Origin: Escherichia phage vB_EcoM_G2469
Sequence record: MK327934.1
Strand: one strand, 5' to 3'
Length of the DNA stretch: 64,000 nucleotides
Below are positions 41,792-45,046 of the stretch, one piece after another (the first letter of the stretch is position 1; the number at the start of each line of letters is the position of its first letter). The notes beneath the pieces are model-generated. The model saw only the letters and a program-made list of their open reading frames with translations, was not told where the DNA came from and did not search any database. Position numbers and translations under genes: made by a program.

Positions 41792-42418
41792 TTACTTACG
41801 AGTTTTTGCATACTGAGCAGCGTCAGCAGCCAAACGACCTGCCTGACGAAGTTTTTCTTTAATCGCATCGTGAAGTGGTTGAGTGTACTTCAAACCTTCG
41901 ATAGTCAAATAAAGACGATAAAGGTCCGGGGTATCAAGGTTGTTGATATGTTGGCCATTACGAAGAATATTGAATTCACGAACGAGTGAAGATGTATCGG
42001 ATTCAATATCACGAACAAGCGAAGATAGTTGTTTATATTTTTTTTCCAGACTAGAAGTATCAAACTTAAGAGCAGGAGCTTTAGGAGTTGCTTTTACTTC
42101 AGGCTTAGGCTCAGGTTTTGCTATTGCTTTAGGGGTCGCAGGTTTAGGAATGGAAGGAGTAGGTTTTACTTTAGGCGAACCCGATTTAGCAGAAACACCA
42201 CCACTAACAATATCTTTGAATGCTTTAGAAGCTCTGTAATATTCTTTTTGGCTGGAAGTGTCGATACCGTACATGGCTTGAACGTTTTTGAAAAACTCTG
42301 TACTAGTTTTTGTACCAGAAATAGCATCGTAAGCAGCTTGCCATTTCTCTTTTGTCATACGTACACCGGCTTCGGTGATTACTTCCGTTTCGGCTAAAAA
42401 TTCATTAAAAGTATACAT
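41792..42418 (-). CDS. internal-protein-like protein with Pro/Lys-rich linker
   Basis: 208 aa, N-terminal MYTFNEFLAETE (CTS-like); late promoter upstream. Confidence 0.5.
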   Translation of the reverse strand: MYTFNEFLAETEVITEAGVRMTKEKWQAAYDAISGTKTSTEFFKNVQAMYGIDTSSQKEYYRASKAFKDIVSGGVSAKSGSPKVKPTPSIPKPATPKAIAKPEPKPEVKATPKAPALKFDTSSLEKKYKQLSSLVRDIESDTSSLVREFNILRNGQHINNLDTPDLYRLYLTIEGLKYTQPLHDAIKEKLRQAGRLAADAAQYAKTRK

Positions 42419-42453
42419 CGATGGTCCTTAGAAAGTAGGTTTATTGTTTACTA

Positions 42454-42461
42454 TATTTATA
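42454..42461 (-). promoter_or_regulatory. T4-type late promoter TATAAATA (minus strand)
   Basis: Plus tatttata about 36 nt upstream of ATG 42416-42418. Confidence 0.5.
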
Positions 42462-42462
42462 C

Positions 42463-42491
42463 AAAAAAGCCCCAACCTTTCGGAAGGGGCT
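42463..42491 (-). terminator. intrinsic terminator (minus strand)
   Basis: Plus aaaaaagccccaacctttcggaaggggct; near-duplicate of the 26594-26621 terminator. Confidence 0.6.
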
Positions 42492-42531
42492 ATATACCTT
42501 GTCGGGGTTCCACCTGCTAAGGCAAGTGTTT

Positions 42532-42625
42532 GTACGAAACGCCGGGATTCGAACCCGGTTATTAAGTAGTTGACGCTACTCAATATTTTTAAAAGGCCAT
42601 ATCTCGACCATATCCGAACGTTCCG
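42532..42625 (-). ncRNA. tRNA-like element (canonical T-arm plus acceptor-like stem; degenerate tRNA or stable small RNA)
   Basis: Minus strand has CCGGG-TTCGAAT-CCCGG followed by CGTTTCG that can pair with CGGAACG about 85 nt upstream; D and anticodon arms do not fold canonically. Confidence 0.3.
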
Positions 42626-42793
42626 TCAAAAACGCTACTCGGCTTACGGCAAAGATATTTCCTCGAATCGATAATTCGGTGCGCCGTTTCTGCTGTGATA
42701 TAAGGGGGCATTAACAAAACATAAAGATTTATTAATGCCAGTCCTTACTCAGGGAACATCAGTCCGACGACTTACCGGTAGCGACCCGGCTTC

Positions 42794-43138
42794 TTATTTT
42801 GGCATATCATCAATTTGCTCTCGACGCCGACGCCATAGATTAATCGCTTCATAAACACATTCTGCGTTTGGTATATGACGGCAATAATATAATGATTCGC
42901 GTTTCTGGAATCGATGTTGCAATGGGATTTCGTTTAAAAGGTCTTTACGGTCAAAGTATTCAAAACTAGTTAACCTGGAACGGTTTTTAATGAACTTCCA
43001 ATGACCAAATTCATTTTGAACATAGATGTAATCTGCATGTTGGTATAACAAATTAATCAATCGGTCTGAAATAACTGTATCATGTTCGTTAAAATAAAAC
43101 GTTAAATCATGAACTACTAAGTAAACATTACCTTTCAT
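42794..43138 (-). CDS. hypothetical protein
   Basis: ORF 42794..43186 trimmed to internal start MKGNVYLVVHDL so it does not overlap tRNA-Arg. Confidence 0.4.
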   Translation of the reverse strand: MKGNVYLVVHDLTFYFNEHDTVISDRLINLLYQHADYIYVQNEFGHWKFIKNRSRLTSFEYFDRKDLLNEIPLQHRFQKRESLYYCRHIPNAECVYEAINLWRRRREQIDDMPK

Positions 43139-43233: not shown

Positions 43234-43333
43234 ATGATGCGGCTTTGGGTGTTTCAGTGTTACTCGTTTGTAGGTTCTACTTTTAACCCTTATTCGAACA
43301 ACTTACCTACCTAAGAGCGTACTCACCGCGAAT

Positions 43334-44696: not shown

Positions 44697-44735
44697 GATA
44701 GGACTACTATAACATAGTCCTATCGTGTTGTAAAT
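44697..44735 (-). promoter_or_regulatory. early-promoter cassette with perfect palindrome GATAGGACT-N10-AGTCCTATC
   Basis: Plus gataggactactataacatagtcctatcgtgttgtaaat. Confidence 0.45.
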
Positions 44736-45046
44736 TATTTTATGCCTTTAGAAGAAATGGTATTTTGGCGTTTAACCCCTGTTTGTGAAAAATCGTGGTT
44801 ATCGATTTGGTCGACTCGCATAACACCAAATGCAGATTTAATTTTAGCCTTTGAACCTTTTTTGATACTAATTATCATATAAGTATCATTTTTCTTATAT
44901 TCGAAATTTGTTACTTCAACGCCTTGATTAGAAATTGACTTAATAATAGCATTAGCGTATTCATCATCTAACGGACCGGTGGTGTTAATAATAAAATTTT
45001 TATCGGCTTTAGTAGCTTCAGCGATAAACTCTTGATAAGTTTTCAT
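44735..45046 (-). CDS. internal-protein-like protein (ipI position)
   Basis: 103 aa, N-terminal MKTYQEFIAEA. Confidence 0.5.
   Translation of the reverse strand: MKTYQEFIAEATKADKNFIINTTGPLDDEYANAIIKSISNQGVEVTNFEYKKNDTYMIISIKKGSKAKIKSAFGVMRVDQIDNHDFSQTGVKRQNTISSKGIK

Follow-up and report, generated by a model that had tools for sequence, protein, structure and literature searches.

The window analysed here is a 64,000-nucleotide stretch of DNA from Escherichia phage vB_EcoM_G2469 (MK327934.1), and the locus of interest lies on its minus strand, along which coordinates of features are given 5′ to 3′, with the higher number first. In that direction it comprises tRNA-Met(CAU) (43408–43334), tRNA-Arg(UCU) (43233–43157), an ORF of 114 aa belonging to phrog_3355 (43138–42794), a homologue of T4 rnaD of approximately 120 nt (42797–42678), a homologue of T4 rnaC of 139 nt (42671–42533), a conserved 3′ trailer hairpin (CACUUGC-CUUA-GCAGGUG; 42528–42511), an intrinsic terminator (42491–42463) and, past the terminator, a gene whose product begins MYTFNEFLAE and resembles the targeting peptide of T4 internal head proteins. 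The two tRNAs, which provide the upstream context, were identified by both ARAGORN and Rfam and are separated by a 100-nt spacer, in which a folding test detected no significant fold. The trailer hairpin is a predicted fold. The terminator, with a GC stem, GAAA loop and U6 tract, was recognised by eye and by predicted folding; a simple terminator scan missed it because it contains an internal loop. An earlier reading of this DNA, made from its letters alone (the sequence-only reading), had placed an RNA region between a strong terminator and the tRNA cluster. The terminator is indeed present, but the region is separated from tRNA-Arg by the 114-aa ORF.

The same reading described the region as free of ORFs and as lacking a canonical tRNA fold, and both descriptions hold. 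The ORF listing contains no ORF of at least 60 aa in 42463–42790; short TTG-start ORFs occur at 42589–42717 (42 aa) and 42428–42583 (51 aa). Likewise, neither ARAGORN nor Rfam (at gathering thresholds and with E up to 10) called a tRNA in 42463–42790, the best Rfam match being a tRNA-Sec-like alignment at 42534–42626 that scored 17 bits (E = 3.1) against a gathering score of 47. When ARAGORN and Rfam were run on the window and three related loci, only genuine tRNAs were returned.

The region almost certainly contains the orthologues of T4 rnaD (species 2 RNA) and rnaC (species 1 RNA). RNA C and RNA D of T4 are small stable RNAs that have been described since the 1970s. The T4 record (AF158101) carries them as misc_RNA features, rnaD (71053–71171; labelled “small, stable RNA; species 2 RNA”) and rnaC (70908–71046; “species 1 RNA”), directly after tRNA-Arg. 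The rnaC of the window (42671–42533) is identical to T4 70908–71046 at 138 of 139 positions, and the rnaD of the window (42797–42678) shares 107 identical bases with T4 71053–71171 over lengths of 120 and 119 nt, respectively. Under the rnaC covariance model (R1) the window scores 161 bits and T4 scores 160 bits; under the rnaD model (R2) the scores are 126 and 115 bits, respectively. The sequence-only reading had suggested that the region could correspond to the stable non-tRNA species of T4, and this proposal is upheld by base-for-base alignment with rnaD and rnaC of AF158101 in the same order and with the same trailer. As in T4, rnaC is the last RNA of the tRNA unit: rnaD precedes it, and the trailer hairpin and terminator follow. 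Its predicted fold is the same in the two phages. The element itself is thus already known, as the species 1 and species 2 RNAs of T4.

The units differ in three respects. The T4 unit has eight tRNAs, whereas that of the present phage has two (Met and Arg); the ORF upstream of rnaD is absent from the T4 unit; and T4 rnaD begins two bases past the CCA of tRNA-Arg, whereas here it lies past the stop codon of the 114-aa ORF (DNA at the 5′ junction: ...GCGCACCA in T4 and ...GCGCACCG in the window). The rnaD of the window therefore does not start immediately after a tRNA 3′ CCA, and its conserved leader overlaps the stop of the ORF. Nevertheless, it shares with T4 rnaD the helices H1, P1, P2 and P3, in addition to the position immediately 5′ of rnaC. 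The tRNA-CCA junction is a feature of the context of many rnaD members and does not define the RNA itself.

BLAST found the region in more than 800 phage records, nearly all of them T4-like phages of enterobacteria, with at least 80% of the region covered in 679. The region of the window is 100% identical to that of Escherichia phage FL31, and the nearest relatives are Mosigvirus (RB69-like) phages. GenBank records often mislabel this region as a tRNA or as the CDS of a ‘hypothetical protein’. Neither RNA C nor RNA D matches any Rfam family.

Comparative secondary structures were modelled for both RNAs and are held with high confidence. RNA C is modelled, from the comparison of sequences, as a four-way cloverleaf with a tRNA-like top half. 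The cloverleaf was obtained with RNAalifold from seven rnaC sequences, and the rnaC of the window adopts the same cloverleaf when folded alone (MFE z = -4.56 relative to shuffles). From the 5′ end, a 7-bp acceptor (5′ strand CGAUUCG, 42670–42664) leads with no spacer into a 3-bp AGG/CCU stem, which is the base of a long, extended ‘D-arm’ carrying four more helices (42663–42594). This is followed by an A/U-rich linker of 7–10 nt, a 10-bp arm (42585–42560) with the 6-nt loop CGUCAA (42575–42570), a single nucleotide, the T-arm CCGGG-UUCGAAU-CCCGG (42558–42542), the 3′ strand of the acceptor (CGUUUCG, 42541–42535) and a 3′ UA ending at 42533. The 3′ end was placed by alignment with the T4 annotation, in which the 5′ end of rnaC lies one U ahead of the first acceptor pair. 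With a 7-bp acceptor stacked on a canonical 5-bp T-arm, the termini of RNA C would therefore make up a complete tRNA ‘top half’.

The RNA C model is supported by covariation throughout. In an alignment of 17 distinct rnaC sequences (MAFFT), 93.4% of cells were paired, compared with 38–47% when the partners were slid, and 31 of 53 pairs were changed on both sides, which none of 500 shuffles reached. In a set of 19 sequences from at least nine genera, the core helices were 92.5% paired; this set covers Tequatrovirus, Mosigvirus, Karamvirus, Kagamiyamavirus, Jiaodavirus, Marfavirus-type Klebsiella phages, Kanagawavirus, Gelderlandvirus and Moonvirus. The acceptor occurs as CGAUUCG/CGUUUCG (T4 type) and elsewhere as CGGUUCG/CGUUCCG, an A-U to G-C compensation, while the Jiaodavirus form CGGUAUG/CAUACCG makes seven perfect pairs. 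A tandem U.U occupies two of the seven acceptor positions in 18 of the 19 sequences. The T-arm, which the sequence-only reading had correctly identified as perfect, is 100% paired, and its middle stem pair varies between G-C, U-A, A-U and C-G. All ten pairs of the 10-bp arm are double-changed in at least one sequence, as are most of the 16 + 6 pairs of the extended ‘D-arm’. The inner length of this long arm is 64–67 nt in 19/19 sequences, even where its sequence has been replaced; in several genera its interior is unrelated in sequence, yet the arm keeps its length, its loop and the 5 bp that lie under the loop. Across genera, approximately 50 nt of the arm and both apical loops are near-invariant, and the length of rnaC is constant at 139–143 nt. 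In one lineage (L008/L022/L024) the T-loop is non-canonical (UGCAUGC). Past the acceptor, the DNA of most RNA C genes reads UACAA, and that of the Jiaodavirus and Marfa types reads UCCAA (N73 followed by CCA). Most members are without CCA, a point against RNA C mimicry of tRNA.

This terminal pairing replaces the acceptor put forward in the sequence-only reading. The two strands named there, CGGAACG (42625–42619) and CGTTTCG (42541–42535), are both present, at a distance of 92 nt, but do not pair with each other. Their pairing would place an A.C mismatch in EcS1, Karamvirus and others (CGAAACG, CGUUCCG), and it is the terminal pairing that covaries instead. CGGAACG belongs instead to the long arm, as the 3′ strand of its apical hairpin, where the G/A difference still pairs with U. 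A G3.U70 (tRNA-Ala-like) identity was dropped together with the pairing that carried it. The stem-loop previously drawn at 42661–42680 (UCG-AUU-CGA) proves to be the 5′ strand of the rnaC acceptor.

The two apical loops of RNA C are exact reverse complements. The loop of the long arm, UUGACG (42629–42624), is the exact complement of the CGUCAA loop of the 10-bp arm, and the loops are complementary in 19/19 rnaC sequences, in three alleles: that of the window, UUGCAG/CUGCAA in Jiaodavirus and UUGGCG/CGCCAA in the Klebsiella phage F48/Marfa group. Two of the six loop pairs are double-changed, and this covariation represents two independent lineage events. The Jiaodavirus form is no decaying copy, since 138 Klebsiella/Raoultella phage records retain it with at least 95% identity. 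Thus, a 6-bp kissing loop probably joins the two arms of RNA C, within one molecule or between molecules. Reasoning from the arm lengths, with approximately 19 bp out to a GUA bulge and 6 + 6 + 10 bp back, they may be compatible with closure within one molecule. The 6-nt ‘anticodon-like’ loop of the sequence-only reading is real, and its stem shows compensatory changes; however, as its partner would be the loop of the long arm, it is no anticodon loop.

RNA D is modelled, likewise by comparison, as a 5′ hairpin followed by a long irregular rod, which runs from P1 through P2 and P3 to a variable tip and contains conserved internal loops. The 5′ hairpin, H1 (GCCGG-GUCGCUA-CCGGU; 42790–42774), has four of its five pairs double-changed and is 100% paired in 20 sequences. 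The rod opens with P1, in which G-U-CGUCG (42771–42765) pairs with CGGCGC (42686–42681) and which is separated by an internal loop from P2. The 5′ strand of P2 (UGUU), a CCC junction and the 5′ strand of P3 (UGA-GUAAGG) occupy 42758–42743, opposite the 3′ strands of P3 (CCUUAU-A-UCA) and P2 (AGCA) at 42705–42691. Covariation supports all three rod helices: three of the four P2 pairs and four P3 pairs are double-changed, and P1 shows a G-C to A-U change in one member (L069) and a change from CGUCG/CGGCG to CGUCC/GGGCG in four weaker members found by covariance model search (L079, L080, L081 and L022). The tip is the variable apical hairpin P4 (42738–42708), drawn from the MFE structure; it corresponds to the stem-loop that had been noticed at 42707–42737, and other lineages carry different hairpins at this point. 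Over the 20 sequences, 96.7% of cells were paired, compared with 31–45% after sliding, and 12 of 23 pairs were double-changed, which none of 500 shuffles reached. Furthermore, the rnaD of the window folds alone into the same structure (MFE z = -3.69 relative to shuffles). Two other motifs were considered for RNA D and rejected. A hammerhead (CUGAUG...GAAAC) lacks the core A9 on inspection by eye, is unconserved and uses bases that belong to P2, and a tRNA-like ACCA 3′ end was discarded since the flank varies (ACC, ACA, AUC, AAC, C).

Comparison with known structured RNAs places RNA C near tRNA and outside it. With canonical tRNA (RF00005) it shares a 7-bp terminal acceptor on a 5-bp T-stem and a UUCGAAU T-loop that has the seven nucleotides and the U54 U55 C56 R57 A58 pattern of tRNA and, like tRNA genes, it is placed inside tRNA clusters. 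In contrast, the tRNA D-arm (3–4 bp, with a G18 G19 loop) is replaced by the multi-helix arm of 64–67 nt, the anticodon arm (5 bp with a 7-nt loop) is replaced by the 10-bp arm with its 6-nt loop, the variable region is a single nucleotide and the acceptor contains the tandem U.U. Moreover, the 3′ NCCA of tRNA does not appear in the window, where the DNA reads G-UACA, whereas Jiaodavirus and Marfavirus members encode U-CCA. RNA C is not a tRNA, because it departs from tRNA in the D-arm, the anticodon arm, CCA and the model score.

A tRNA-like acceptor/T-arm module joined to a body unlike that of tRNA is found in tmRNA, with its tRNA-like domain, and in bacterial YrlA, which is Y-RNA-like. However, tmRNA has a tag ORF and a series of pseudoknots, both of which RNA C lacks, and ARAGORN and Rfam were negative for tmRNA; the termini of YrlA form a Ro-binding stem, not an acceptor stem. 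No match to tmRNA or Y-RNA-like Rfam families was found even with E up to 10. In the pRNA of phi29, two mutually complementary loops covary among relatives, and their pairing joins separate molecules on the packaging motor. RNA C shares the covarying complementary loops but has a tRNA-like module, which pRNA does not, and matches pRNA neither in sequence nor under the Rfam model.

RNA C and RNA D are independent modules, found in nine or more genera of the Tevenvirinae; RNA D also reaches into the Vequintavirinae. rnaC is cleanly absent, with rnaD abutting the trailer hairpin, from five T4-like loci (L028 and L030–L033), and in EcS1, Karamvirus and Melville it is flanked on both sides by tRNAs at ordinary tRNA spacing. 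RNA D usually comes straight after a tRNA: in T4, Karamvirus, Jiaodavirus and Vequintavirinae it is immediately preceded by the CCA end of one, and the rnaD-like elements of Karamvirus, Jiaodavirus and others come after tRNA-Asn or tRNA-His. Phage A5-4, of the Vequintavirinae, carries rnaD twice, directly after tRNA-Met and tRNA-Tyr. rnaD is present in few Vequintavirinae, and this scarcity suggests transfer between co-infecting phages. Beyond phages, no host homologue or antisense target was found in 5,426 E. coli genomes, which gave four chance matches of 27 nt (E = 3); a pattern scan across bacterial species genomes yielded 11 matches attributable to chance, and model R1 scored none of them; and a metagenome scan gave T4-type copies only.

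Expression data are available for T4. Northern blotting detected late accumulation of RNAC and RNAD (PMC9697503), and a precursor of approximately 1.75 kb that carries the tRNAs and both RNAs ends past species I RNA (PMC2330249). RNAs C and D have been described as deriving from the tRNA region, with no role assigned to them (PMC3014915). No functional study of either RNA was found in the literature searched, a scope outside which the 1970s sequencing papers and the 2003 T4 genome review fall. In BW-1, a T4-like phage, three lines whose virulence on E. coli ECOR34 had risen from 0.17 to 0.98 had only one change in common, a convergent SNP that was mapped, imprecisely, to rnaD (PMC12685909).

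Deletions of the tRNA region of T4 are viable on laboratory hosts. Taken together with the natural loss of rnaC and the BW-1 SNP, these deletions point to a conditional, host-directed role. The account favoured here, which is regarded as the likelier one with some reservation, is that the region encodes T4-type stable RNAs cut from the tRNA unit; its more tentative part is that RNA C may be a tRNA mimic and that both RNAs may bind protein in trans.

Among the alternatives, the strongest is that RNA C and RNA D are cis-acting by-products, that is, structured spacers in the tRNA/mRNA precursor, or stabilisers of its 3′ end, which would steer processing or hold off 3′ exonucleases and be functionless after release. 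In the T4-type arrangement the RNAs do stand at the 3′ end of the unit, ahead of the trailer hairpin and terminator, and both are flanked by tRNA-type processing junctions; the precise loss of rnaC in some natural phages, with rnaD then joined to the trailer, would also suit dispensable spacers. However, in Karamvirus, EcS1, Melville and Jiaodavirus the RNAs are internal, between tRNAs that need no stabiliser, and the near-invariant arm and loops of RNA C, together with the fixed length of the arm, exceed what a spacer needs. Furthermore, the released RNAs are stable in T4 (PMC9697503), and a SNP mapped to rnaD altered host-specific virulence (PMC12685909). A purely cis-acting role is accordingly judged unlikely.

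A multimerising scaffold, in which RNA C would associate hand in hand like phi29 pRNA to form late structural dimers or rings, is more doubtful still. It would explain loops that are complementary to each other, not to themselves, and that covary, and it accords with the proximity of RNA C to internal head protein genes and with its late appearance in T4 (PMC9697503). The constant arms (approximately 19 bp out and 22 bp back), though, fit closure within one molecule equally well, and RNA C matches no Rfam family, pRNA included. RNA is not known to occur in T4 heads or in the T4 packaging motor, which also counts against a scaffold. A packaging role for RNA C is unsupported.

The sequence-only reading had also considered a decayed tRNA, and a pseudogene with random hairpins would account for a T-arm and acceptor-like stem that draw no tRNA call, for the weak tRNA-Sec-like match and for the tRNA labels that annotation pipelines sometimes assign to the region. 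This explanation is very improbable given that the element recurs in hundreds of phage records across at least nine genera, with compensatory changes that keep every helix and the loop-loop contact and with a constant length of rnaC. The indels and broken helices of neutral decay are not seen among the homologues, and the near-identity of rnaC between T4 and the present phage compares with 52–62% for dNMP kinase relatives in other T4-like contigs. That the region instead encodes small proteins, as its two TTG-start ORFs and the CDS features in many records might imply, is just as improbable, since stop-free stretches are similarly short in six frames, no frame is conserved, 1-nt indels shift the frame between homologues, the substitutions are pair covariations of the RNA type and the stable RNAs of T4 come from exactly matching coordinates.

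Under the favoured account of stable, tRNA-unit-derived RNAs, both would be transcribed within the tRNA transcription unit and then excised. Judging from its shape, the tRNA-like top half of RNA C could allow the host tRNA-processing machinery to free it, with RNase P acting on the 5′ side and an endonuclease followed by trimming on the 3′ side, while the trailer hairpin and terminator would be removed. The U that precedes the first acceptor pair at the annotated T4 5′ end, and a 3′ end of UA (UACA in the DNA) in place of NCCA in most lineages, count against cleavage by RNase P. The kissing loop would then close the body of RNA C into a compact, nuclease-resistant and non-decoding molecule. 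Acting in trans, RNA C might serve as a mimic or decoy of the acceptor/T-arm surface of tRNA, and RNA D might bind protein through its conserved internal loops. The probable target would be a host-specific factor (e.g., an enzyme directed at tRNA, for defence or for processing), given that some phages can dispense with these RNAs and that both bring an advantage under certain conditions. The trans-acting part of this scheme, whether mimic, decoy or protein binding, is offered tentatively, and the lineage with the UGCAUGC T-loop weakens a strict mimicry of the tRNA elbow.

A bolder version, considered unlikely, holds that RNA C represents a new class of tRNA mimic, with an intact top half on a body closed by the 6-bp kissing loop, acting as a decoy or adaptor or through multimers, and that RNA D is an independently mobile ‘tRNA-trailer’ module, common to Straboviridae and Vequintavirinae, that tunes host range. 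If true, some host factor, such as a defence nuclease, a transferase or a processing enzyme, would read the tRNA top half of the decoy or adaptor, and the two readings together would open a first way into the function of RNAs that have stood as orphans for approximately 50 years.

Several features described here may be new, namely (i) the terminal acceptor and covarying kissing loop of RNA C and (ii) the rod model of RNA D, both relative to a literature outside which the 1970s papers fall, (iii) the modular, cross-family distribution of both RNAs and (iv) their being missing from Rfam. Since both RNAs lie outside Rfam and are often mis-annotated, covariance models for them would improve phage annotation. 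The comparative folds of RNA C and RNA D are concrete, testable structures, and the convergent rnaD SNP of BW-1 suggests a role in host range that is relevant to phage therapy (PMC12685909).

The RNA genes of vB_EcoM_G2469 lie between two minus-strand genes, one downstream of the terminator (41792-42418; product beginning MYTFNEFLAE) and one upstream of the RNA region (44735-45046; product beginning MKTYQEFIAEA), the latter matching internal head protein phrog_2667. Both N-termini are similar to the peptide that targets T4 internal proteins to the capsid, which places the RNA genes among internal head protein genes, the same neighbourhood as in T4. The two phages differ in what precedes rnaD, the homologue of T4 species 2 RNA. 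A 114-aa ORF (phrog_3355; 42794-43138, minus strand) lies between tRNA-Arg and rnaD, and its UAA stop codon is contained in the conserved rnaD leader, (A)UAAGAAG. Thus, tRNA 3' processing, which generates the 5' end of rnaD in T4, cannot do so in vB_EcoM_G2469. Further upstream, a 100-nt spacer separating tRNA-Met from tRNA-Arg (43234-43333, minus strand) may be the remnant of a lost tRNA; its fold was not significant (z = -0.13). The T-loop-like GUUCGAAU is present in this spacer.

Related phage loci carry further putative structured elements around rnaD. In Enterobacter phage myPSH1140 (L066), the rnaD-like element and tRNA-Asp are separated by a third structured RNA candidate of ~143 nt (2576-2718), with a 13-bp closing stem (AAGUUUACUUUCG/CGAAAGUAAAUUU) and a fold z of -4.08; Rfam contains no family for it. 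The same candidate occurs in L004, L067 and L068, with a variant form in L069. In L015, L030 and L031, a mini element of ~65 nt was observed between the tRNA-Arg CCA and rnaD, comprising the hairpin GACUAU-UAU-AUAGUC followed by AAGCCGUCG...CCGGCGCAAC; it looks like a shortened tandem copy of rnaD, 5' of the full element.

Two rnaD-like copies (611-710 and 1502-1623) were found in Escherichia phage A5-4 (L003), a member of the Vequintavirinae that is not T4-like, directly 3' of tRNA-Met and tRNA-Tyr. One is close to the Karamvirus type and the other to a T4-like subtype, which suggests exchange between phage families.

The rnaC gene, homologous to T4 species 1 RNA, also varies. Copies in one lineage, L008 (5960-6099), L022 (2501-2640) and L024 (4203-4342), keep the T-stem unchanged but carry a non-canonical T-loop, UGCAUGC. 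In a 170-kb phage (L027, about 4100-3990, minus strand), two tandem GC-rich hairpins (GAGCGGGCGGUGCGCCCGGUA / GAGCGGAUGGUGCAUCCGGUA) follow rnaD instead of rnaC.

Mis-annotation of this DNA is systematic: public GenBank records label rnaC and rnaD as tRNA-Phe, tRNA-Met, tRNA-Lys, tRNA-Arg or 'hypothetical protein', and ARAGORN called part of rnaC a 95-nt 'tRNA-Met' (L017, 8491-8585). Covariance models for rnaC and rnaD would correct this. In five natural T4-like phages (L028 and L030-L033), rnaC is precisely missing and the conserved trailer hairpin is joined to rnaD; these phages are natural rnaC 'knock-outs', usable for comparison as they stand.
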